Assembly: GCA_964016885.1 (NCBI GenBank)
Contig: OZ024747.1
Coordinates: 35,526,001-35,590,000 of the forward strand
DNA from: Eledone cirrhosa
Lineage: Eukaryota
Direction of reading: 5' to 3'
DNA: 64,000 nucleotides
Shown here one piece after another: positions 1-49,205 of this stretch. Within the stretch, counting starts at the first letter, position 1. The number at the start of each line of letters is the position of its first letter. The position numbers were made by a program, and so were the translations under genes. Under the pieces are notes generated by a model. It worked only from the letters and a program-made list of their open reading frames with translations. It did not search any database and was not told the origin of the DNA.

Positions 1-2750
1 GTGCAAAGTATAATGGTTTGTATGATGCTGTGGCTGAAGGAGATTCAGTAAATGCAGGCTGAAGGATTATTCTTCCTCCTTCAATCTATGGTTCCCCTCG
101 CCTCTACAGTGAGTGCTTCCAGAATTAAATAACTGTGGTTCGACACATAGGAAAGCCCTATTATTTCATCACACTAACAACTAACCCTAACTGGGATGAA
201 ATAAAAAAAAGTCTGCACCCTGGTGAAGAACCTGCGCACCGTCACGATATTTGTACAAGATCAAGTATGACAGCCGCATGGATGACATACTGAAAACAAA
301 TGTCCTAGGAAAAGTTGTGGCGCATTTTGCTACAATAGATTGGCAGAAACGAGGCCTCACTCATGCTCATATTCTGCTGATAATGGATGAAGATAGCAAA
401 CCCAAAACTGCTGATGCTATTGATCAGGTAGCGTACTGTGAGATTCCTGATAAAGAGACCAATCCAATTCTGCATAAGATCATCACATCCTGCAACATTC
501 ATAGCCCTTGTGGACAAGCTAATATGATTTGCTCATGTATAGAAAGGCTAGGACAACAGCGTCATTGCTCAAAAGGTTATCTTAAGGTATTCAGGCAAAT
601 CACATTTGTTGCCGAAAATTCCTTTCCTGAGTACGGAAGGGGGATGAACAGCATGGTGGTCACATCCATAAAATCCAACTTGAAGGTCAAGAATTTACTG
701 TTGATAATCTTTGGATTGTTCCATACAACCCTTTCCTCTTATTGACACATCAGTGCCACATCAATTGTGAGGTTGTCCACTGTCAAGGCTGTTAAGTACT
801 TAGAGAAGTACGTTACAAAAGGATCAGACAAGATCACTTTCACTATTAAGGATGATCAAGGAAATTGTGTCCATGCCGAAAATGAGATTGAGACCTATAT
901 CAAAGCACGGTACATCTCAGCCAGTGAAGCGTTCTGGAGAATCCATAAATTTACATTACATCATCGAAAACAGCCAGTTGAAAAGTTGCCTTGACATTTA
1001 CCTGGGGAACAAATCGTCGTGTATGAGTGAGGGCAGGAAGAAAATGTTGTTTCTGAGGGACAGCCAAAGACTAAGTTGACGGAATATTTACAACTGAATA
1101 TTAGAGACCCACTGGTACAAAACATATTATATATTAATATTCCTAAATATTTCACTTGTACAAGCAAAAAGTGGCAAAGAAGAAAAAAGGGACATCTGGA
1201 TGATGATCAACAATTTATGAGTGAATCTCTTGGACGCATTCCAACAGTATCTCTCAGTAGACTTCAATCTGAATTATATTATCCTAGGATGATCCAACAT
1301 CACAAGGTTTGGTCAACTTCATACAAAGATTTGAGGACAATTGAAGGTGTTGAATTTCCAACACCCCAAGAAGCATGCAGGAAACCTGATCTGTTGGATG
1401 AAAATGAAGAAAAAGACAAAGTTATGGAAGAGGTCCACAGCTGCGAGAGATCTTCTGCACCATTTTACTATACTTCATGCCAAATGACCCTCTCTAGTTC
1501 TTGCAGAGGATATTATACATGAACGTCAAGAGCAAGTCATGCCCATGCAAACCATGCAGATTGTTCTACAGAAGAGCCACCAAAGACTTCAAAATGATGG
1601 CTTGGACATTCATGCCAACTATGGACTTCCTCAGCCAGACCTAACTATTGTTGCCATAACATAAATCAACAGGGATCTTATGACAGTAACTGATTTCAAG
1701 CAAACATAAATGAACTTCTGCCAAAACTTAATCCTGAGCAACTGGTTATATTTCACAAAGGAATCACCTCTGTAAATGAACGTAGAACTTTCTGCTTGAA
1801 TGCAAGTGCAGGCACAGGAAGGATTTATGTCATCAACATCATATTGGATTACCTCCGATCTAAAAAAAAACATTGACTTGCCACTACCATATCTGGATAG
1901 CAGCCAATATTCTTCACAAAGGTAGAACGCTTCATTCCAAGTTCAAGATTTCTCTCATTGTGACTGCTGAATAAACTTGCTTCTTCACAAAGCGGGATGT
2001 CACGTGTAAAGCCATGCAGCATGCTGAACTTCTAATCATTGATGAGATAGGTATGGGACATATGTTCGAATGCCTTCACAGGAGCTTCAAATGATGTTCG
2101 AGTTTGCAAAAAGCCATTTGGTGTTCTAACAGTTTTACTATCTGATGACTAGAAGCAAATTCTTCCAGTTGTACGCCATAGTGCTAGACCACAAATAGTA
2201 GAGGCAACCATCAAGAGATCTTATCTCTGGGACCAACCATGGAGATGACAACCAATCACCGGATACTTAATTCAGAGGATTCTGTTGAAAGACAGTTTGC
2301 AAACTACTAACTTGATGTGGGAAATGGTAACATTCCAACTGTTCCAACTGTAGGTGCATTCACAATTCCTCTGCCAAATAAACTTTGTTTGGATTATAGA
2401 AATGTTTCTGGACTGTCTGATTTTGTGTATGTAAAAATTCCAGGAAACTACAAGGAACATACTATGGCTTGCAAATAGAGCCATTATCATTCCAAGAAAT
2501 GATGCAGCAAAATTGGTGAATGAGTTCATGATCAACAAGTTCCCTGGTAATGAAATAATCTACAGAAGCTCCGGTACAGTAGATAATGAACTGCAATATC
2601 CAATTGAGTTCATCAACAAACTTACCCCATCAGGCTTACCAACACAATACTTAAACTGAAGAAAAGCAAATGCTACTGAGAAATCTGTATCCTCAAAACG
2701 GGCATTGCAATGGTACAAGTTACATCATCTTCAGTTTACATAATCATGTA
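1..2750 (+). pseudogene. Helitron Rep-Helicase pseudogene (5' part outside the window)
   Basis: HUH Rep motif WQKRGLTHAHILL, KYLEKYVTKGSDK and RYISASEAFWRI. PIF1-like helicase remnants (ASAGTGR, DEIGM, QILPVV, GHCNGT). Many stops and frameshifts. Confidence 0.93.
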
Positions 2751-9044: not shown

Positions 9045-9168
9045 TTCCAAACGATCGTTTCATTATAAGTTTTCTACAAATTGAGAAAATAATGTCCAGG
9101 TTATGTAGAAGACTACACATAGTCCGTAGGAATATATGTAGGTGGGCACTTATAAATCATCAGTGGAT
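9045..9168 (-). ncRNA. Hammerhead with extended stem II
   Basis: Minus strand: TCCA-CTGATGA-TTTATAAG..CTTATAAT-GAAA-CGATCG-TT-TGGA. Confidence 0.75.
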
Positions 9169-15630: not shown

Positions 15631-16129
15631 ATATATATGAGAACCCCATATATATATATGAATACAAATAGACAAGGGTTAAAATGTCCTCTTAAGTATT
15701 CTGCTGATTTATCGTTGGTATTTCGACGCATTAAAAACTAGATACCTAAACTCAGTGCGAGCGATAACTCAATCAAGTTATCGGGACAGTGGGAAAACGG
15801 AGGGAAGGAAACAAACACATGGTGGTATGCAACGAAAAGAGAGGAAAAATTGAGACAAGTCAATGAATCATGTGGGCATAAGCCCGACATATCAAATTGA
15901 CGAGGAGAAAAAGACAAGTCCGAGCTGCGAGAAGATTGAGAGAGGACAGAAATTCAAGCAGGTCAGACGGGAGGAAGTGAGAGGGGGGAGAAGCAGAGAG
16001 CGAGTGAGTGAAAGTGGGAGGAAGGACCAGCGGAGAGAGATTTACCAGCAGTAGAAATTGAGGAAGTCAAGTGGTGAAGGAGAGAGAAAGGGTGATAGCA
16101 ATAATGTAACAGAAAATATACGAACCACA

Positions 16130-18520
16130 GCGAAGGGAAAAATTATGTGAATGAAAAATGGCGTGTTGCGTTGTTGCGAACAGTCAGACCCATCTACCTC
16201 TCCCATTTTACCACAACCCCCTCCCCTCCTTCAAACATGCTCACAACTCCACAACCTCCTCGTCCGAGATCCCTACCATCAACCCCTGTTCCTCAAACGA
16301 ATATCTTCCCTACTCCCGACCCCGCTGCCATACATCATCAACACTACCATCTTCCAGGGACCCTATGGCCACTGTCCGGCATTCCTTTCGCTGCACCTCC
16401 TCCAGCCTTGTCCAGTTACTCCTATGAACGGAGTGCGTCGCAACCTATGTCGGGCAGACCGGACGCCGCCTGGCCGACCGAGCACCTCCCTGACATCCGC
16501 CTCGGCTTGCTCCCCCATCGCTCGACACTTCTGCTCAGCTGGACACTCCGCTTGCAACTTGACCGTCTGCGGCCTAATTGCGTACCCTGGAACACCCGAT
16601 GCCCGACTTAGAGTTGAACAACGTACCATCTTCCAATTACAGATATCAATCACCCCAGGTTTGAACTCCCCACCCCTCTTCCGTTACTCCCCAACTGACT
16701 CCCCCTACCTACCACTAACTTTACTAACCTCCCACCACCCACATCTACCACCCGCATCCTCACTGAACAACATACACACACACTCACACGCACCCATTGC
16801 CGCCACATTACCGCCTACTATCTGACGCCCCCCCCCCCCATTAACGCACTAACATTTCCCCCTCACCAACCACCTACACGCACCTTCCTCTCCCACATCA
16901 CCTCCCCCTACTTTCACCACTAACCTCTACCCACATAATCTCACACCTCAAAACTAACCCCTTCGCTCAACTAGCCATTCCTTCACCCTTACCACCCTGA
17001 TACCACAAAATCTGACACGAACTTACACTCTAAACCAGGGGTTCTCAACCTCTTTTTCTCTGTGGACCACCGACATAAGTAATTTTTTCCTGTGGACCAC
17101 CTAAACTTTTAAATCTAATAGAACTGTACTTATAAGCATCAGTAGATGTTTTGTTCAATGAATTAGAAAATGCTATTATCATGTCGCAGTGCCTAAAAAT
17201 CTACGTAAATAAACAGCTGAAATCTTACTTATACGGAGAATAAGAACAGCGCTTTAAGTCAAATGCATGGATCAAAAAAGAATTTGCTATCGAGAATTTT
17301 CTGTGGACCACCTGAATTTTCCTGTGGACCAGGTTCCACATGGACCAGTTTCAGAACCCCTGCTCTAAACACATACATACACCATTATATGCACTCACTC
17401 ACACACCGACAATACCTCTTCGCATGTCCACTACGCTTTCTACACACACACATTCACATAACTCCATACACACATACATACACACATGCCACTCTCAGCC
17501 ACCTCCTCCCCCACACTTGCCTGTCTACACAGCTACTACCCTTCATGTAGTAGTACTATTATCATTCTCACTCTGACTCTTTCGACTTGACCCCTCCCGG
17601 TTGCGTACGTCACACTACCATTTCACTGCCTCATCACCATTTTCTTCTACTTGAAATTGGAATTTACCTCACATTGAAATACACCTGGTTAACCTTCGGA
17701 TCTTTACCCTCCACACACACACACACACACACACACACCAACATCCAATCATAAACATAGACTCAAACACACACACTTGCACCATTTCCGCACACACGCA
17801 ACTACACATATTACATGAACCCACATCACCTGCAGACACACCACGCAACCCCTTCTTGTAATCAGACAAACACACACGCACTTGCACACGTACACATACA
17901 CCCACCTTTCACCTCACACCGCCTCCGGATTTGACATGACCTCATCTCATCCCATCCGGCCCCCTCCATCACCACACACATACATACACACCTACACCCA
18001 TACAGAGGCTATACACACACAATGGTGTTTCAAAACCCATATTCACATACAGTCGCTTCGTTCCAGACTCTCACACTTACATACACACATACACACATCT
18101 ATACACACACCTTACATTCCGGCATCCGCGCACAAACTATAATTTTATTCCTTTGCCACAACCCCTTCCCTCAAACTCTCTCACCTCTTTCTACCCCTTA
18201 CACACTACTACACTCTTGCCATCCCGGACACGTACATCCTCCCCGCTCCCTGGCCGTCTTCTTAATTTTGACATTTAAAAAAAATAATTTTTTAGATATC
18301 TATTTAATTCTGTTTTTATTTATTTTGATTTTAATATTTTTTCATTTCGGTTTTCCCTGTCCTTACATGTTCTTCCTGTTAACTTCCATCCGTACTACCC
18401 TCCTCACTCACGCTCGGAGTTCCTCCCTACATTCCTGATGAAAGACTTATGTCCGAAACTTCGTAACCTCCACCACTATCACCAAGCGTGAAGCTAATAA
18501 CACTATGTACTATTGACACC
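16130..18520 (+). mobile_element. PLE 3' fragment of a second clade (GIY-YIG relic 16150-16670 plus long C/A-rich tail)
   Basis: SPIARHFCSAGHS..LTVCGL..RLRVEQRTIFQL..PGLN. HHR-like CTGATGA..GAC TTAT GTC..GAAAC at 18435-18460, without a clear stem I. Confidence 0.7.
17036..17362. mobile_element. hAT-type MITE
   Basis: TIRs CAGGGGTTCT/AGAACCCCTG, perfect 8-bp TSD CTCTAAAC, and subterminal TGTGGACCA repeats. Confidence 0.92.
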
Positions 18521-25232: not shown

Positions 25233-25842
25233 ACTAGTACTGTTTCATTCAGATGAAATCTTCAGGAAACTGGGTGTCATATTAAGTTCTGGTATTTATA
25301 CATTTAGGTAGTGGTACGGGAGGGGTGGTGGAAGGGGGTATTTAGGTACTCAGGACCACTCATGGCACAGGCCGTTTTTTCTTTGGGGAGTGGTCAATTA
25401 GCCAGAGTGCTTCTTTGAAATAAATAAATAAGTAAATAAATAAATAAATGAATAAATAGATAAAAGAATAAATAAATAAAATAAATAAAATAGATTAAAA
25501 AATTAAATAATATAAAATAAGTAAATCAAAACCCCAAGAATAGTAATTCAACAGATATATAGTAGGGAAATTTAGGTGGGTTGGTAATAGAAATTAAACA
25601 TTTAACAAGACCGAATCATGGCACAGACTGGGGTGAGTGGTCAAGTTAACATACAAGCACAGGTGGACAGAGTGTTTTTGTAGGATGGAAAGAATAAAAT
25701 ATATTTACATACTCACAACCACATGCAAAAACACTTACACACACATATATATACACACACATAATTAAACACTTACACACACATATATACCTATATATAT
25801 ATATGTGTGTGTGTGTGTGTGCACACCTACACACCCACACAC

Positions 25843-26460: not shown

Positions 26461-26641
26461 CGTTATTCCGGGTTGAATCGGAGGTAACCACAGTAAGTAA
26501 AGTACTCAATACATAGCAGAGTATAACAGTTTTAATATAGATGAGATTCTACAGGACTAGAACTGTTTCATTCATTAGAAATCATCAGGGATTCCTGATG
26601 ATTTCTAATGAATGAAACAGTTCTAGTCCTGTAGAATCTCA

Positions 26642-26713: not shown

Positions 26714-26971
26714 GATAAATCTACCAAGAGTTTACGGTAGTGAAAAATCACTTTCGGTGAAAGATAAACGGTATACAGAGTCAATATTGTTGAATATGCA
26801 TGCCAACTCTAACACATATATATCCTAGAAACGATCGTTAAATAATGAACTTTTTTTGTTTAATATAAGGAATTGTTTATTCATTATTTGTTTAATATTT
26901 TATATATATATATATATATATATGTGTGAAGAAAATCCTAGCTATCGGAGTATCGTTCTTTTTATTTACGT

Positions 26972-27073
26972 GTCCCAACGACTTTTTTTAGCCGTTGTTC
27001 GCACCAACCTGAGGTATATGGCCCTTAAAGCGATGAAATGCCTGGGACGGTTGGAGGGTCACTGATGAAGGAC
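26972..27073 (+). ncRNA. Hammerhead ribozyme with non-canonical (scrambled, pseudoknotted) segment order, copy 1
   Basis: GGTA-TA-TGGCCCT..GCGA-T-GAAA-TGCC..AGGGTCA-CTGATGA-A-GGAC. Helices covary with 41308 and 47119. Confidence 0.75.
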
Positions 27074-27154
27074 CCCCCCCCCCCCCTTTTTTATATGTAA
27101 CCCATTTGCAACGCCGCAGCTCCATTATTATCATATATATATATATATATATAT

Positions 27155-27990
27155 ACTCCGATAGCTAGGATTTTCTTCACTTTGCTGAAATTACACTTCC
27201 CCATACAACATAGGTACCACACCATCTTTAATAAAAACACATTAAGACTGTCTTACTCCACCACACCTAACCTAGCTAGGAATATAGCCAACCACAATTC
27301 TAAAAAATTAAATAAGCCAACCACCTCCGAACCCATTCCCCGGACTGGGGCTCTATGTAATTGCCTAAATAAGGAAGCATGCCCACTTGAAAACAAATGC
27401 CTCACAAATGATATCGTATACAAATGCGATGTCATCTCAGGCACCGAGGATTGCAAAAAAACTTACACCGGCATGACCTCCAACAACTTTAAGACCCGTT
27501 GGTATGCCCACACCCACTCCTTCAGAAGACTGGACAAATCAAATCAGACAACACTCGCCTCCTACGTTTGGGACCTCAAAAGTAACTCCACCCTCTTCAC
27601 GCTTAACTGGAAAATACTCCAGAGGCGTGCTCTTACAACGGAGGACATAAGGGCTGCGACCTTTGTATTTCAGAGAGCTACGAAATTTTATTCGCCAAGG
27701 GCCCGCTACTGAACAAACTCTCTGAACACTGCCCGAACTGCATGCACAAGAACTTTGCAACTTTCAAACACTTTAAGCCAGTGTTAAAGCCCGATGGCTA
27801 AAAACGACCTCCCCCTTTTGGCCCCTATACATCCTTCCCACCCTACCCCACCCCTCCTCAACCTGAAATACGGCCTCTATGGTTATGTGAGTACCTCTTT
27901 CCTATCTACATTTTCTGTCTGTAGAGGTGTTTTTATGTGCCTGCGTATATGCGTATATTTATTGAGTACTTATTTATTTGTATGTGTATA
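27155..27990 (+). pseudogene. Naiad-like PLE 3' fragment (linker, GIY-YIG and tail start), inverted relative to the 32505 ORF
   Basis: [33 protein letters not shown], near-identical to the reverse complement of 32340-32990. Frameshift at about 27625. Confidence 0.92.
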
Positions 27991-29667: not shown

Positions 29668-29718
29668 AGATTCTACAGGACTAGAACTGTTTCATTCATT
29701 TGAAATCATCAGGAATCT
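29668..29718 (-). ncRNA. Type I hammerhead ribozyme (3' pLTR)
   Basis: Minus strand: AGATTC-CTGATGA-TTTCAAATGAAT-GAAA-CAG TTCTAGTC CTG-TA-GAATCT. Confidence 0.85.
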
Positions 29719-32504: not shown

Positions 32505-34325
32505 TTAGCCATCGGGCTTTAACACTGGCTTAAAGTGTTTGAATGTTGCAAAGTTCTTGTGCATGCAGTTCGGGCAGTGTTCAGAGAGTTTGTTCAGTAG
32601 CGGGCCCTTGGCGAATAAAATTTCGTAGCTCTCTGAAATACAAAGGTCGCAGCCCTTGTGTCCTCCGTTGTAAGAGCGCGCTTTCTGGAGTATTTTCCAA
32701 TTAAGCGTGAAGGGGGTGGAGTTCCTTTTGAGGTCCCAAACGTAGGAGGCGAGTGTTGTCTGATTTGATTTGTCCGGTCTTCTGAAGGAGTGGGTATGGG
32801 CATACCAACGGGTCTTAAAGTTGTTGGAGGTCATGCCGATGTAAGTTTTTTTGCAATCCTCGGTGCCTGAGATGACATCGCATTTGTATACGATGTCATT
32901 TGTGAGGCATTTGTTTTCAAGTGGGCATGCTTCCTTATTTAGGCAATTACATAGAGCCCCAGTCCGGGGATTGGTTTCGGAGGTGTAATTGTTGGCGGAG
33001 AGGCCAGATATTCTAATAGAGACGCTTTTTACTAGGTTATCAGTGATGTTTTGGGGGTGGTTAGAATTAACATTAATATATTTAAGGGACTCGTTAGGTT
33101 TGTGGTACGGGTAATAGAGGGAAGTATCTAGGTCGAGAGTGACATCTAAGAAGTTGGCCCTAGTCAAATTAGAATCTATACTTATACTAAATCCTAGATT
33201 AGAGAAGAAAGAGCTTAAGTTTTTACGAAACCCATCGGTGGTTCTGGGGCTAACCTTATGCAGGGCGAAGAGGCCGTCGTCTCGGTATAAACCTCCAGTT
33301 AGGCCGGTAAAGAGGTTATTCAGGTTATGTAGGATGTACAGGCCCACAAGGTCGCTAATTTCAGCCGAGTCACTCGCCCCCATGCTAACGTCAAATGGGT
33401 TCTGAGATTTCTTGTTGATCCAGTAAGATCCATCGTGGTATAGAAAGTTCTTACGAGCGTGGAGGATAATAACTTGCTCAGCATCGGTAATGGTGGTAAA
33501 ATTCCTGGCAAAGTTAATTGCGTCCTTCAGGAGGGGCTCCGAGATAGAGGCATAGTAGTTTTCTATGTCAAGTTGCAGGAAGCGAGTGTGGTGTTTATCG
33601 GGTAATTCTTGGAACCATGATATTGCCTCAGATGTTCTACTCCAGAGTGGAAGTGGTGAGGCTGCCCGCAATGATGGTAGAACTCTATCCAGGATCTTCT
33701 TACTGATAGAGCCGATGTCAGAACGAGTGGGGTTGATAAGTCTGACTGATGGTTTGTTGAGGAAATTTCCCTTATGGTCCTTCAGGGTAAAGTGCGGGGT
33801 CTTTACCCTTAAAGGTTCGGTTCGGTCGTGTAATTTAAGGGACTTGGCGATTTCTTTTCCGGCCGCGTTTGTCTCAGTCAGTGCCCTCTCTATTACCTTT
33901 TTGTAGGTGGTCGTGATGGTATTTTTTGCCAGCTTATTGTAGGTCTGTGGGTCTACCTCATAAACTTTTTTGGTTTTATCGGAGGAGACATAAAGATTAG
34001 GGGATTTTTTTATATTCCGTAATTCGGCATTTAAGTAGGCCTGGAATGGTGTGGTGGCTCTACGGAATTTAATATCCTTGATCATCTTGAAGAGGTCTTC
34101 TTCAAATGGTTGGAGTAGGCTGTTGCTGGGTGGTGTCTTATTCGTTTTGAAGCCGAACTTCTCATCATTGGTAGATGCTACATCAGGTTTGTCGAGGAAG
34201 AAGGCCCTCCATCTAATTCGCTTGATGAACTCGTCGGTACGTCTGATGAGTGTTTTTAAGTATAGTTTCCTTGGAGGGATAGGGATGTTCTTCAAGGAAA
34301 TATCAAGGTCGAGTTTGGTCATCAT
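32505..34325 (-). CDS. Penelope-like RT plus GIY-YIG polyprotein, open frame with an internal in-frame deletion
   Basis: [56 protein letters not shown] and CDLCISE. Start is placed at the first ATG; the ORF track extends to a TTG at 34421. Confidence 0.93.
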
Positions 34326-34455
34326 GGTTTCTTGATGATGGTTATAAGGGGCACAGAGAGTGCTAAAATGTACGTTATTCCGGATTGAATCGGAGGTAAC
34401 CACAGTAAGTAAGGTACTCAATACATAGCAGAGTATAACAGTTTTAATATAGATG

Positions 34456-34506
34456 AGATTCTACAGGACTAGAACTGTTTCATTCATTTGAAATCATCAG
34501 GAATCT
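34456..34506 (-). ncRNA. Type I hammerhead ribozyme (5' pLTR)
   Basis: Identical to 29668-29718 and located just upstream of the ORF. Confidence 0.85.
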
Positions 34507-40827: not shown

Positions 40828-40850
40828 ATGTGTATATATATATATTTCAT

Positions 40851-41461
40851 GCAATGAAATATCTATGATCGTCGGCAAATAACTGATGAGGGACTTATTT
40901 TATTACATGTTATCCATGTGCTACTAGCAGTATTTTTCTCCCCATTTTATCACATATATTTACCTAAACTGCGATTCTGTTTTTTTCTCTCACTCTCTCT
41001 CTTACTGCTCCCTCATTATCTCTGTTTCTCCTACTTTCTTTCACCCCCTCTGTCATATCAGTTAACTCATCCTCACACTTCCACTCACTCACTCAGTGTT
41101 TCTCCTCTCCTCACTTCACCCCGTTCGCAACGAAAGCAATTTCTCTCTTTCTTACATTGCATTCGTTCGCGAAAGGTCTTTTTTCTAAACGCTCATATAT
41201 TCACCTAGTTTATGCTAACAGAATAACTATGAAGCTTGTTTCCTTCCTCTACGGTTAGCTCTACTCTTTGTTGTTTTCTTGTCTCAGTCGCTTTACGCGT
41301 TTTAGTTGTCCTAATAACTTAATTTAGTTATTATTGCACCGACGTGAGGTATATGATTGTTAGGCAATGAAATATCTATGATCGTCGGCAAATCACTGAT
41401 GAGGGACTTATTTTATTACATGTTATCCATGTGCTACCAGCAGTATTTTTCTCCCCATTTT

Positions 41462-41465
<4 letters not shown>
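40851..41465 (+). mobile_element. Tandem non-coding unit (513 bp) carrying the scrambled HHR
   Basis: 40851-40952 is repeated at 41364-41465. Confidence 0.75.
41308..41407 (+). ncRNA. Scrambled-order hammerhead, copy 2
   Basis: GTCC..TTGC-A-CCGACG-TGA-GGTA-TA-TGATTG-TTAG-GCAA-T-GAAA-TATC-TAT-GA-T-CGTCGG-CAAATCA-CTGATGA-G-GGAC. Confidence 0.72.
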
Positions 41466-41508
<43 letters not shown>

Positions 41509-42737: not shown

Positions 42738-43210
42738 TATTGTTATACTTTGGGAGGGTCATGTTGCCAATAAAAAACACACGCACCAGTAGTTTTCACT
42801 TCAATTTATTGTAATACATTTATAAATTTAGGAATTTATAAATTTCCGGTTGGTTGGTTGGTTCCACAAACAGATGATTGTTTTTGAGTGTGAACACACA
42901 CAAAAACTAAATGGCGTAGGACCGAACAAAGGGGAAGGACAATAACAAAGAAAATAATCCCCAGTCACTGAAGAGGTTACATAATGTGTGACGAAAGAAC
43001 TTTGACAATATATAAACAATCACCTGGTTGTGGAACCAACCAAACAACCGGAAATTTATAAATTCCTAAATTTATAAATTTATTATAATAAATTGAAGTG
43101 TAAACAGCTGGTGCGTGTGTTTCTTATTGGGAACATGACGCTCCTAAAGTATAACAATATCGGTTTCAACACACGTTTTCAGATAAAGAATCTTGCTAAA
43201 CAAATTCAGA

Positions 43211-44089: not shown

Positions 44090-46197
44090 TTTCTGAATTT
44101 GTTTAGCAAGATTCTTTATCTGAAATCGTGTGTTGAAACCGATATTGTTATACTTTGGGAGGGTCATGTTGCCAATAAGAAACACACGCACCAGTTGTTT
44201 CACTTCAATTTATTATATATTTATAAATTTATAAATTTACAAATCTACAAACTTATATATTTCTGGTTGGTTGGTTGGTTCCACAACCAGATAGTTGTTT
44301 ATATATAGTCATAGTCCTTTCGTCACACACTCTGTGACCTCTTGAGTGACTGGGGATTCCTTCCTTTGTTTCTGTGCCTTTCCTTTCTTCTATCCTACGC
44401 CATTTTGTTTCTGTGTGTGTGTTGTGTGCTCAGTTTGCGCATGCGCCACATCCGGGTGTCTGTGTGTGTTTGTGTTCATTTATCTATTTGTTTATTTATT
44501 TATTTATTTATTGTTGGTTGGTTGTTTGTTCTATGTGTGTGTGTATTTTCATTCTGTCCTGTGTGTGTTTTCATTTTGTCCTTAATTGTAAGTTGTGATG
44601 TTGCTGTTCCACTCATATTTTCTATTTAATTTTGGTTGTAATTCTTTTATGCTTACTGCCTCTGTAATTTGCCTAAACATTGCATCTTTTCTGTGTGTGG
44701 ATTCTATTTTTATTTCTATGTTCTCTAATCTACCCCTGTGTTCTATCTTAGCATGTTGGTAGAGCACAGATGATTCTTTATTATCTTGAAGGTCTCGCCA
44801 GTGTTCATTTATTCGTTCCCCTATACTACGAGCTGTCTCACCTATGTACACTATATTTTTGTTTCTACATTGTCCTTCAGTACATCTAATGCTATACACT
44901 ACATTTCTAGTTTTACAGTTAATATGGGGGCTTATTTTACAGGTTATACATTTCTTATCTATACATGATGGTCTTTGGAACGGGTATGTCTTGCTAATAA
45001 GTGTTTTTACGGAGGTACCTGGTCATTCTACTATCTTAATATTGAGTTTATGTTTATTTAGGGCCCTTCTAAATTTGTAGGCTAGTTCGCCTCTAGGGGT
45101 TGTATTGATAAACATTACACTCTGGTATTTATTGCTATCATACCATGAGTTTATTCTATTGGCCTTGTTCCTAGTTCTTTCTATTCTATTTCAAAATTTG
45201 CTCCTATACAAGGGGAAGGTCCCATTTATGTCATTATTTACCATTTTTTCCCATTTGGTTCTGGCTCCTCTATACACTCTGATTCTATCTCTCTGATTGT
45301 AGCCAGAGAACTGCATACGGTGGATGAAGTGTTGTATGTGTCTCTCTAGTTCTTCGGGGTTGCCCATGCGGGACACATTTCTCATCACCCGTACCAAATC
45401 CGCAATCAGTATGTTGATTTTGGTATGGTCCGAAATGGCCGAGTTTCGGTGGATCAGATGTTTGGAAGTCATGGGTTTGGCATAATGGGAATGGAGGATT
45501 TGTTTTTGGTTGTTAATGGTATCTAACCGATTACCTGTACTAGACACAGAGCTTTGGTTAGATACCATGACTTCCAACATGTGCTCTACCAACATGCTAA
45601 GATAGAACACAGGGGTAGATTAGAGAACATAGAAATAAAAATAGAATCCACACACAGAAAAGATGCAATGTTTAGGCAAATTACAGAGGCAGTAAGCATA
45701 AAAGAATTACAACCAAAATTAAATAGAAAATATGAGTGGAACAGCAACATCACAACTTACAATTAAGGACAAAATGAAAACACACACAGGACAGAATGAA
45801 AATACACACACACATAGAACAAACAACCAACCAACAATAAATAAATAAATAAATAAACAAATAGATAAATGAACACAAACACACACAGACACCCGGATGT
45901 GGCGCATGCGCAAACTGAGCACACAACACACACACAGAAACAAAATGGCGTAGGATAGAAGAAAGGAAAGGCACAGAAACAAAGGAAGGAATCCCCAGTC
46001 ACTCAAGAGGTCACAGAGTGTGTGACGAAAGGACTATGACTATATATAAACAACTATCTGGTTGTGGAACCAACCAACCAACCAGAAATATATAAGTTTG
46101 TAGATTTGTAAATTTATAAATTTATAAATATATAATAAATTGAAGTGAAACAACTGGTGCGTGTGTTTCTTATTGGCAACATGACCCTCCCAAAGTA

Positions 46198-46201
<4 letters not shown>
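44090..46201 (-). mobile_element. 5'-truncated PLE of a third clade with about 620-bp inverted arms
   Basis: HYAKPM..SAISDHTKINIL..MQFSGY and YSIRC..C..YIGETARSIGERINEH..RQITEAV. 44147-44768 is the reverse complement of 45581-46201. HHRs at 44307-44351 (-) and 45997-46041 (+) have a CTCAAGA core. Confidence 0.88.
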
Positions 46202-46252
<51 letters not shown>

Positions 46253-46720: not shown

Positions 46721-46782
46721 TTACTGGTTCCTATATATATATATATATATATATATAAGAGAGGAAATGAGGGACAAGTCAA

Positions 46783-46816
<34 letters not shown>

Positions 46817-47118
46817 TTGTACCACTTGCTTTCATTCATCCCTCTGCTTGTCACACTCTCTCGGCTCGCTTCTTCCTCACACATTCGCTCACTGACTCTC
46901 TGCAGCTCCTCCTCTCTCACCTCCCCCCGTCAGTCCTGTGTGAAATCCTTTTGTTGCTCACATTTCACAGAGTTTGGACGCTTCTGCCGCTTTCTCATCG
47001 TTGATTTGGTCGAACTTAAGTTCACATATATCGTTGACTTGTCCCTCATTTCCTCTCTTTACGTTGCCTTACTATTTTCGTTTGTTTACTATCCCTCTTT
47101 CTCCACCCAATTCACTCT

Positions 47119-47221
47119 GTCCCAATAACTTATTTTAGTCATTGCTCGCACTGATTTTGAGGAATCTGGTCTTTAATGCGAAGAAATATCGATGATAGTC
47201 AGAAGATCACTCATGATGGAC
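47119..47221 (+). ncRNA. Scrambled-order hammerhead, copy 3 (core mutated to CTCATGA)
   Basis: GTCC..TCGC-A-CTGATT-TTGA-GGAA-TC-TGGTCTT-TAAT-GCGA-A-GAAA-TATC-GAT-GA-T-AGTCAG-AAGATCA-CTCATGA-T-GGAC. Confidence 0.68.
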
Positions 47222-47246
47222 AGTTCTGTTTCTCGCTCTATTTTAA

Positions 47247-47588
<342 letters not shown>

Positions 47589-47821: not shown

Positions 47822-48201
47822 GTGTAAGGAATTCTTTTACAATGGAATTAGCTCGAAAGGAAATATTCCTGAGCCGTGTATAAAAGTAATATTCTTCAGC
47901 CTGGCTAACTTTCTTTTGCAATATAAATACAGATATGTTGGTATCTGTTTCATCATATATATTACTCATATATATTACTTTTATACACGGCTCAGGAATA
48001 TTTCCTTTCGAGCTAATTCCATTGTAAAAGAATTCCTTACACTTAATATAACGGCTCTTCGTCGAGCTAAAATTCGCCTCATATATACGACTGTTATTTC
48101 TAGCAGTACGGTTATGAGACTAGCCTGAATCTGTGAACCCATGTGCGTCACACAGTCTTTTAAATTATTTAGAAGTGAAGCTTATCAATTGTCTCTGGAT
48201 G

Positions 48202-48270
48202 TTTACTGAGGAGAGCAGTGGCAAGATATTCCTACACTTATACACTTATCCATCTCGAAACATGTTTGGA
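48202..48270 (+). ncRNA. Minimal hammerhead (unit 1)
   Basis: TTTA-CTGAGGA-GAG..CTC-GAAA-CATG-TT-TGGA. Confidence 0.72.
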
Positions 48271-48735
48271 TTTTGAGGTTTAAACTTATCTACTGAACAG
48301 GTTTGATTTTGAAATTTAAATATGTATAAACATCATAGCCATTTGGCAGCACAGCTAGTTTTTGTCGATTTATTATTATTATTATTTTAAATCGATGTGG
48401 ACGAACTGTGGTAAAATACTTAATATTCTTCAGTCTGGCTAACTTTCTTTTGCAATATAAATACATATATGTTGGTATCTGTTTCATCATATATATTACG
48501 CATATATATTACTTTTATACACGGCTCAGGAATATTTCCTTTCGAGCTAATTCCATTGTAAAAGAATTCCTTACACTTAATATAACGGCTCTTCGTCGAG
48601 CTAAAATTCGCCTCATATATACGACTGTTATTTCTAGCAGTACGGTTATGAGACTAGCCTGAATCTGTGAACCCATGTGCGTCACACAGTCTTTTAAATT
48701 ATTTAGCAGTGAAGCTTATCAATTGTCTCTGGATG

Positions 48736-48804
48736 TTTACTGAGGAGAGCAGTGGCAAGATATTCCTACACTTATACACTTATCCATCTCGAAACATGTT
48801 TGGA
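48736..48804 (+). ncRNA. Minimal hammerhead (unit 2)
   Basis: Identical motif 534 bp downstream. Confidence 0.72.
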
Positions 48805-49045
48805 TTTTGAGGTTTAAACTTATCTACTGAACAGGTTTGACTTTGAAATTTAAATATGTATAAACATCATAGCCATTTGGCAGCACAGCTAGTTTTTGTC
48901 GATTTATTATTATTATTATTTTAAATCGATGTAGACGAACTGTGGTAAAATAATTAATATTCTTCAGTCTGGCTAACTTTCTTTTGCAATATAAATACAG
49001 ATATGTTGGTATCTGTTTCATCATATATATTACTCATATATATTA

Positions 49046-49087
<42 letters not shown>

Positions 49088-49101
49088 AGGTCAGGCCAGC
49101 C

Positions 49102-49205
49102 TGTTACTGGTACCATGTAACCCAGTATGTTACTGGTACCATGTAACACAGTTTATTACTGGTACCATGTAAACCACTATGTTACTGGTACCATGTAACC
49201 CAGTA
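49102..49205. repeat. 26-bp minisatellite, 4 copies
   Basis: TGTTACTGGTACCATGTAACCCAGTA and variants. Confidence 0.9.

Follow-up and report, generated by a model that had tools for sequence, protein, structure and literature searches.

A type-SGC hammerhead-like RNA with a split stem II and a k-turn signature in an abundant tandem repeat of the Eledone cirrhosa genome

What is a hammerhead with scrambled core blocks doing in an animal genome, and what kind of element carries it? The question is raised by positions 26972-27073 of a 64,000-nucleotide stretch of the Eledone cirrhosa genome (contig OZ024747.1), referred to as the window, in which an initial annotation, made from the letters alone, had recognised a hammerhead ribozyme with a non-circularly permuted order of its parts. 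We re-examined this motif in the window and in its relatives throughout the 3.0-Gb genome, and compared it with the hammerheads and mobile elements described in the literature.

Block order and fold of the motif

All the core parts were found on the + strand in the order that had been named, i.e. stem III' with UH and stem I, then the GAAA block, then CUGAUGA: GTCC (26972-75), a hairpin (26976-97), TCGC (26999-27002), CCAACC (27004-09), GGTA-T-A (27013-18), TGGCCCT (27019-25), GCGA-T-GAAA-TGCC (27030-42), GGTTGG (27049-54) and AGGGTCA-CTGATGA-A-GGAC (27055-73). When the hammerhead is divided into blocks C, G and S, as done by Eckert et al. 2023 (PMC10085705), the order at 26972-27073 (+) is S-G-C, with block S at 27013-24, block G at 27030-42 and block C at 27056-69. 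The initial annotation knew of no description of this topology; in fact, it has already been named type SGC in that work, where it cleaves in vitro. The same paper lists 583 type-SGC sequences, from metatranscriptomes and none from the genome of a known organism, and reports five validated natural examples, with four stems tested by disruption and rescue, whose rates span 0.007-0.19 per min; in vitro, cleavage of monomeric SGC RNAs takes place in cis, at a site matching the one predicted here, between A27018 and U27019.

To describe the fold we used 234 distinct full motifs from 213 loci and the window, 230 of which were kept, the other 4 having large deletions; 209 rows were anchored in 19 sequence groups of 1-33 rows, leaving out the 21 of the 230 with core-spacing indels, and 6 of the 19 groups rest on 1-3 copies. 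In the predicted fold, block S (27013..27024, +), which carries the stem III strand GGUA, U16.1 (27017), A17 (27018), the predicted cut and the stem I strand UGGCCC, would pair through stem III with block G (27030..27042, +: GCGA, 11.1 at U27034, G12-A15.1 at 27035-38, stem III UGCC) and through stem I with block C (27056..27069, +: stem I GGGUCA, CUGAUGA at 27062-68, 10.1 at A27069). A near-invariant UAA linker (27026..27028, +; 98-100% of rows) leads from stem I to stem II, much like the UUC/UUA linkers in the alignments of PMC10085705. Stem II itself would be reduced to the single core pair 10.1-11.1, opening into a four-way junction with P2a, P2b and P2c: only 10.1 follows CUGAUGA, and the remaining strand, UCGC, lies 5' of block S, with P2a and P2b in between. 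P2a closes the motif through GUCC (26972..26975, +) and the covarying GGAC (27070..27073, +), its outer pair being G-C, A-U or U-A across the groups. P2b (26976..26997, +) is an 8-bp hairpin, with one A.C in the focal copy and 5 doubly changed pairs. P2c, the displaced distal part of stem II, joins UCGC (26999..27002, +) to 27030-27033, with U-A/A-U and C-G/U-A changes. Finally, a covarying helix, which we call helix X, between 27004..27009 (+) and 27049..27054 (+), would bridge stems I and II at their distal ends, and a predicted k-turn would fold stem III onto it, giving a closed cage. The whole motif (26972..27073, +) scores 107 bits with our own model R1, which was built from it. RNAalifold by itself recovers P2b, helix X and stem III; nested folding of the focal sequence, a model outside which pseudoknots fall, gives stem I and P2c a probability of about 1%, and the fold z-score is -1.4.

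Like the SGC ribozymes of Eckert et al. (PMC10085705), the motif has its blocks in the order S-G-C and keeps every core base, together with stems I and III; a short, conserved linker leads from stem I into stem II, and a helix, equivalent to helix X, connects stems I and II at their distal ends and is linked to stem II by 1 nt. By contrast, the published SGC motifs have a contiguous stem II, with G10.1-C11.1, then one purine and then the I-II helix, and their chain is open at stem III and at that helix, whereas the chain described here is open within the C-side strand of stem II, and its helix X is connected with stem III by way of the k-turn signature. Moreover, they are motifs of ~65-104 nt from metatranscriptomes, linked to viroid-like circles, while the present one is found in genomic DNA in ~20,000 copies. 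The pair 10.1-11.1, too, is variable here instead of G10.1-C11.1. The initial annotation had noted that it varies, and it does, as A-U, U-A, G-U and G-C, pairing in 14 of 19 groups and 187 of 209 rows, with a mismatch in the other 5 groups; G10.1-C11.1, highly conserved in other hammerheads (PMC4209133), occurs in only two groups (F18 and F37), each with a 1-nt deletion and on separate branches of the tree. In all, only one stem II pair abuts the core. Similarly, the proposed stem I stands as a helix of 6 bp; the seventh pair of TGGCCCT/AGGGTCA is formed in only 8 of 19 groups.

Since stem II is split around the four-way junction, the published SGC descriptor, which we re-implemented, recovers 0 of the 234 copies; 1 of 234 is recovered with 10.1/11.1 freed, and 94 of 234 only when stem II is dropped. 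We therefore assign the motif to type SGC by block order, outside the two motifs of Eckert et al. (HRIMA-1 and the type-SGC variant). The latter are described as residing in RNA-only replicons, often opposite a hairpin ribozyme (PMC10085705); here the copies are chromosomal, and a search of both strands in five tandem loci at E 0.5 found no Rfam ribozyme. The expectation that the motif is invisible to standard models was confirmed: in the window there are 0 matches above the Rfam gathering thresholds, and the Rfam hammerhead models find nothing over 26972-27073 even at E 10, and nothing in the five tandem loci.

A different repeat, dispersed at 9163, 19143 and 20124 (-), was considered as a hammerhead and rejected by inspection, its CUGAUGA lying in a GGGC/GCCC-like stem without the conserved GAAA.

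Covariation, core conservation and the k-turn signature

The covariation of the helices across diverged copies, first noticed in three copies, turned out to be far above chance. Among 33 distinct natural copies, 94.5% of the cells pair and 20 of 34 pairs are doubly changed; in none of 500 shuffles is the share of pairing, the number of double changes or the covariation score as high, and slid controls pair at 26-47%, while a "further pair types" statistic was not above the shuffles (332/500). On a tree of the 19 groups, 21 double-sided compensatory changes fall on the 34 pairs, against a mean of 1.05 and a maximum of 7 in a re-pairing null, and none of the 4,246 other column pairs shows more than one double change, the tree being built from the same columns. 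In an unsupervised MI-APC scan of 5,671 column pairs, 27007-27051 (helix X, in which 5 of 6 pairs are doubly changed) ranked first and 27020-27060 (stem I) second; other predicted pairs ranked 6, 7, 8 and 11, amid lineage noise. Stem III has one doubly changed pair only.

Conservation of the core nucleotides among many copies had been posed as a test of the ribozyme. Many of the groups were gathered by core patterns, so that core conservation in those groups is built in; in nine groups (116 rows) found by similarity and not by core pattern, 11 of 11 core positions are invariant, as compared to 32 of 85 other columns, and N7 is the sole variable core base. In the same 116 copies, H17 is A in 69, C in 46, U in 1 and G in 0. 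A change of G12 to A was seen in the majority of one 2-copy group. Sequence and covariation together thus demonstrate the predicted fold, pseudoknotted, non-circularly permuted and with its arms joined at a second distal junction as had been proposed, and they argue that 26972-27073 is a real, strongly covarying type-SGC hammerhead-like RNA of a known permutation class.

Covariation is blind to whether strands pair in cis or in trans, and animal and PLE hammerheads are able to act as dimers (PMC4209133, PMC7229834); a hammerhead of ordinary order might then be assembled from blocks of different units or molecules, and the scrambling would be apparent only. We consider this extremely unlikely, as the S-G-C order persists even on a circle, where the standard order would need blocks of three units, 210 of 230 rows keep exactly the same block spacing, and monomeric SGC RNAs cleave in cis (PMC10085705).

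The fold itself was read correctly by the initial annotation, which overlooked the element hosting it, discussed below, and a k-turn signature on stem III. In the focal copy the non-bulged strand would be 27010..27013 (+; 3n U, 2n G, 1n A, -1n G) and the bulged strand 27042..27048 (+; -1b C, a 3-nt bulge at 27043-45, 1b G, 2b A, 3b C). The signature, namely a C-G pair, a variable 3-nt bulge with a middle purine and then GA opposite A, is found in all 19 groups: 1n A, -1n G, 1b G, 2b A, -1b C and the purine at L2 are each present in 19/19, and 2n is G in 15/19 and U in 4/19. The 3b.3n position takes nine forms, non-Watson-Crick in 18/19 groups; U.U is the commonest (8/19) and the focal copy has C.U. 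A standard k-turn consists of a 3-nt bulge, G.A and A.G pairs and a C-G pair at -1b/-1n, with 2n = U as the commonest Kt-23 variant (Huang and Lilley 2016, PMC5061560); a Watson-Crick 3b.3n pair blocks ion-induced folding, and 3b = C or 3n = G permits it (PMC4382518). The elements predicted here, from sequence and on the stem III of a hammerhead, are the same as in standard and Kt-23 k-turns, with G or U at 2n and a non-Watson-Crick 3b.3n.

Eckert et al. (PMC10085705) observed a large distance between stem III and the I-II helix in the crystal structure; a k-turn kink is a plausible way to bring them together. From the signature we infer both the kink and the possibility that a protein binds it. 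This signature, together with the words UGAUGA and CUGA, could also belong to a box C/D-like or other k-turn RNA that is not a ribozyme, in which CUGAUGA would be a box C look-alike. We attach practically no weight to such an explanation: stems I, III and 10.1-11.1 covary exactly around CUGANGA, GAAA and UH, N7 varies, and the best snoRNA model reaches only E 9.1 against the motif.

The tandem unit and its insertions

A genome-wide search with a three-core S-G-C pattern gave 20,221 matches (10,184 + 10,037), compared to 63 (28 + 35) for a reversed control, and two subtype patterns gave 1,096 and 798 matches, against 0 in the control for each. Of the first 100 matches listed, 91 had full S-G-C cores, 7 matched through a TA run replacing block S and 2 belonged to another repeat, so that ~18,000 full cores is a fair estimate; the genome holds roughly 18,000-20,000 copies. 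These are carried by tandem units, with one ribozyme each, spaced by 445-739 nt (74 natural spacings, some from overlapping loci), homologous end to end, with 40-45% GC and ~68-70% pyrimidine on the ribozyme strand. The units are non-coding, the longest ATG frames in doubled units being of 32-167 aa and differing between groups, and the bodies of distant groups are only ~46-65% identical. An internal duplication of ~110-130 nt in the unit body was observed in group A, F18 and F19 (L028-L030 and others), which accounts for units of 620-640 nt versus 500-570 nt in the other groups. Divergence is lower within than between arrays (1.0% vs 5.8% in group A, 3.7% vs 6.6% in F22), a homogeneity that recombination at the DNA level can also produce. 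Circular folding of four units paired 34-47% of nucleotides, and three of the four folded no better than shuffles, group A being ~5 SD better; a viroid-like rod was therefore rejected.

Instead of the three diverged copies initially noticed, the window holds four full copies and a partial one. The focal copy, as aligned to natural units, is a 5'-truncated insertion of a ~630-nt tandem unit of group A (26951..27132, +), comprising a bit of the unit body, the ribozyme and a 3' tail, and 41 of 41 scored genome matches of the focal sequence are 100% identical to it over 109-111 nt. Alignment of the tails and junction microhomology delimit the 3' tail (27074..27132, +), with a conserved AUAUGU...GCAAC..GCAG block, which may be the site of internal initiation of reverse transcription; it abuts an (AT)11 target microsatellite (27133..27154). 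The 28 nt at 26926..26953 (-) are a 100% identical inverted copy of the 3' flank 27153-27180. Beyond the microsatellite, and outside the repeat unit, a separate PLE fragment (27155..27712, +), C-terminal and endonuclease-like, has an open frame with 81% aa identity to the PLE frame at 32505-34460. The other copies are of group F22 (40837..41475, +; a partial ribozyme at 40847-40894, body, a full ribozyme with intact core at 41308-41407, and tail, at 515-nt spacing), of group F39 (46814..47251, +; ribozyme 47119-47221, with a short inverted piece at 46757-46787) and of group F37 (15654..16182, -; ribozyme 15787-15686), the last two with G5 mutated.

The insertions follow a common pattern. Out of 280 distinct 3' contexts, 72 run into the next unit, 183 reach (AT)5+ within 110 nt and 25 do neither, against an (AT)5+ background of 16-20% in random windows. 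An ATAT microhomology of at least 4 nt is present at 52 of the 87 mappable junctions (96 of the 183 are unmappable), where ~2% would be expected. Head-to-head inverted 5' pieces accompany 34 of 160 central copies, and there are 0 at 3' ends; the element carries neither a poly(A) nor a repeat tail. A pattern for copies in which (TA)5 directly precedes GAAA (793 reverse-strand matches, the forward matches being multiply counted) had no matched control and was for this reason set aside as evidence. Truncation, 5' inversion, tails and (TA)n targets are hallmarks of PLEs (PMC8557442), and a PLE protein has been reported to start reverse transcription inside its own RNA at AT-rich cuts (PMC11167929). 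With PLEs and their minimal hammerheads (PMC4209133, PMC8557442, PMC11167929) the SGC repeat shares truncated and inverted 5' ends, insertion at (TA)n and 3' ends that are internal and may carry a tail, as well as the base between A9 and GGAC, an unpaired base before stem II being typical of PLE hammerheads (PMC4209133). On the other hand, the SGC unit has no RT/GIY-YIG frame and no detected homology to PLE ribozyme flanks, its block order is reversed, and its junctions show microhomology, whereas the start site in PMC11167929 is not homologous to the cut DNA.

An autonomous partner was sought in the 213 loci. PLE-like protein matches were present in 32, in random orientation (same strand 16, opposite strand 15) and for the most part separated from the copy by an (AT)n run, and no ribozyme copy continued into a PLE frame. 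The unit body compared with PLE ribozyme flanks gave a best E of 0.083, with only CUGAUGA-A-GGAC...GUCC in common; a tail profile search returned more units only, and a pattern combining a standard hammerhead with the SGC tail had 10 matches, with no PLE in the three loci inspected. One could still suppose that an unsampled autonomous PLE bears an SGC ribozyme and that the unit is its pLTR or derives from it by deletion, or that the unit is mobilised by a LINE. In fact, retrozymes have been proposed to be PLE derivatives (bioRxiv 10.64898/2026.07.22.740005), Naiad PLEs target (TA)n and lack canonical hammerheads (PMC8557442), and the copies inspected are ~230 of ~20,000. Yet the total lack, in 213 loci, of copies running into a PLE frame speaks against this origin, and the absence of a poly(A) or repeat tail, along with internal 3' ends and 5' inversions, fits PLEs better than LINEs; we regard it as very unlikely.

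A number of other elements were seen in the same searches. The window contains a 651-aa open frame (32505-34460, -), which we take to be a PLE from its motifs, a pLTR hammerhead and ~700-aa relatives; it seems to lack part of its middle, the coverage by relatives of ~700 aa being 73%, and Pfam gave no name for this frame or four relatives. Its standard-order minimal hammerhead lies in the pLTR at 34500 (-), and the element ends in (AT)n. Further copies are at 29712 (-), 38338 (+) and 39000 (+) and in a fold-back pair at 26543-26640, and a related form is at 25265 (-) and 42588 (+). A standard-order PLE-type hammerhead, CUGAUGA-A-RGAC-N4-GUCC-GAAA, occurs at 18435 (+) and also in loci L228-L239. 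Another frequent standard-order hammerhead, with a 7-bp stem II, is at 42968 (+) and in L185, L197, L052 and L208, in a repeat end where fold-back inversions are frequent. In L226:1450-1800 (contig C27, ~9.145 Mb), about seven 50-nt tandem units each contain a minimal hammerhead of standard order and, after it, GCAACCACACAGC, similar to the tail block of the SGC repeat; this tandem is possibly a minimal retrozyme, or the likeness is due to chance. At 47950-49120 (-) there is, flanked by TA runs and accompanied by an inverted end piece, a 534-nt tandem of ~2.2 units whose units carry GAAA-hairpin-UA and later CUGAAGA (G-S-C order) with unconvincing stems I and II; possibly it is another PLE-type tandem repeat. 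A 627-nt perfect inverted repeat (44142-44768 / 45580-46206) surrounds a PLE-like fragment with a GIY-YIG domain, and near-identical copies are found beside several ribozyme loci. Lastly, 227-745 (+) is a Helitron helicase-like fragment (PF14214).

Outside the genome, a fixed-spacing pattern, which reaches close relatives only, had 4 metagenome and 0 viral matches. The 4 were taken as chance since their stems do not pair and their best model score is 21 bits, as compared to 88-107 for true copies. Many variants of the stretch occur in contigs from two unclassified runs of one study; these runs may be the source sample and so are not independent evidence. A look for the sequence among RNA runs listed none that contained it, a result that speaks neither for nor against expression.

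Mode of spread, origin and significance

Non-LTR retrozymes are tandem non-coding units with a type I hammerhead, proposed to be mobilised by PLEs (Cervera and de la Pena 2020, PMC7229834; Li et al. 2026, bioRxiv 10.64898/2026.07.22.740005). Like them, the SGC repeat has one hammerhead per unit, a GC content of ~40-45%, arrays from monomers to multimers, an unstructured body that leaves the ribozyme free, and PLEs coexisting in the genome; they differ in that retrozyme hammerheads are of type I, often with a weak stem III working as dimers, in units of ~300 nt (51-972 nt in the preprint), while the ribozyme described here is of type SGC with a full stem III. We are fairly confident that the type-SGC hammerhead, one per unit, belongs to a tandem retroelement that is non-coding and non-autonomous and behaves in the manner of a non-LTR retrozyme. 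In such a cycle, tandem arrays would be transcribed and each ribozyme would cut after H17 (A27018 in the focal copy), giving RNAs of unit length whose ends would be re-ligated into circles; a resident PLE protein would nick an (AT)n tract, and the nicked end would pair with the AUAU of the tail, 10-80 nt past the ribozyme, and prime reverse transcription; copying round the circle or along a multimer would then lead to truncated, inverted or tandem insertions. Here we infer cleavage, expression, circularisation and PLE-driven priming at the tail AUAU.

Alternatively, the fold might be real and derived from a hammerhead but barely self-cleave alone, either requiring a PLE protein or host 15.5K/Snu13, or being kept mainly for recognition by the PLE reverse transcriptase, with uncleaved multimers as templates. 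For instance, the PLE hammerhead of the anole needs protein to cleave, and insertion in vitro does not require that cleavage (PMC11167929). Along the same line, the 5' ends of the copies are spread over the unit with no stack at the cut (14 of 185 in the following 20 nt vs 1-16 in other bins), arrays with intact ribozymes are common, U.U is the most frequent 3b.3n pair, and the words AUGAUG/CUGA in several groups resemble box C/D. Nevertheless, the catalytic bases and the rule that H17 is not G are kept across deeply diverged groups, and the full stem III and I-II helix are like those of self-sufficient SGC ribozymes, unlike the minimal PLE forms. Weak self-cleavage thus appears to us quite unlikely, and we favour the retrozyme-like cycle.

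As to the origin of the permutation, the genome has 14,297 matches (0 in the control) to the standard-order motif CUGANGA-A-RGRC-N4-GYCY-GAAA, one of which lies on the same strand and downstream of an RT-like frame (locus L229). When the SGC repeat unit is read as a circle, CUGAUGA-N-GGAC, the body and GUCC resemble the stem II of a PLE hammerhead with the body as its loop, the match being short. The permutation could have arisen in the animal lineage from a resident PLE hammerhead, with GGAC/GUCC kept as P2a, the body as loop and the GAAA block shifted through a duplication and a loss, and the caged form, closed by the k-turn, could be bound by host 15.5K/Snu13, which would decide between cut, ligation and stable circle. 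We propose this history tentatively and consider it rather unlikely; if true, it would offer a traceable origin for a non-circular RNA permutation and a natural hammerhead gated by a host protein. Alternatively, the form may have come from a viroid-like SGC RNA by capture, or may be due to convergence.

In the literature searched, thin on subscription papers, we found no earlier account of a genomic or retrozyme form of type SGC, nor any work joining hammerhead, kink-turn and retrozyme; there, neither the occurrence of this motif as a highly abundant retrozyme-like repeat of an animal genome, nor the division of stem II, nor the closure by a k-turn seems to have been reported. The SGC count in this one genome is about thirty times that of the 583 environmental RNAs of unknown host, in at least a dozen diverged groups, which makes it possible to study the permutation in an actual organism and to date it on a tree. 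This motif goes against the idea that none of the three hammerhead blocks can be interrupted, and the predicted k-turn offers a concrete answer to a question left open by Eckert et al., namely by what path stem III comes to the stem I-II helix. A long-standing puzzle of retrozymes is what stops their circles from cutting themselves in vivo, and here, too, the k-turn suggests a mechanism that could be tested. Since published descriptors miss this motif, further repeats with ribozymes may lie unnoticed in animal genomes, also in PLE clades described as lacking hammerheads.
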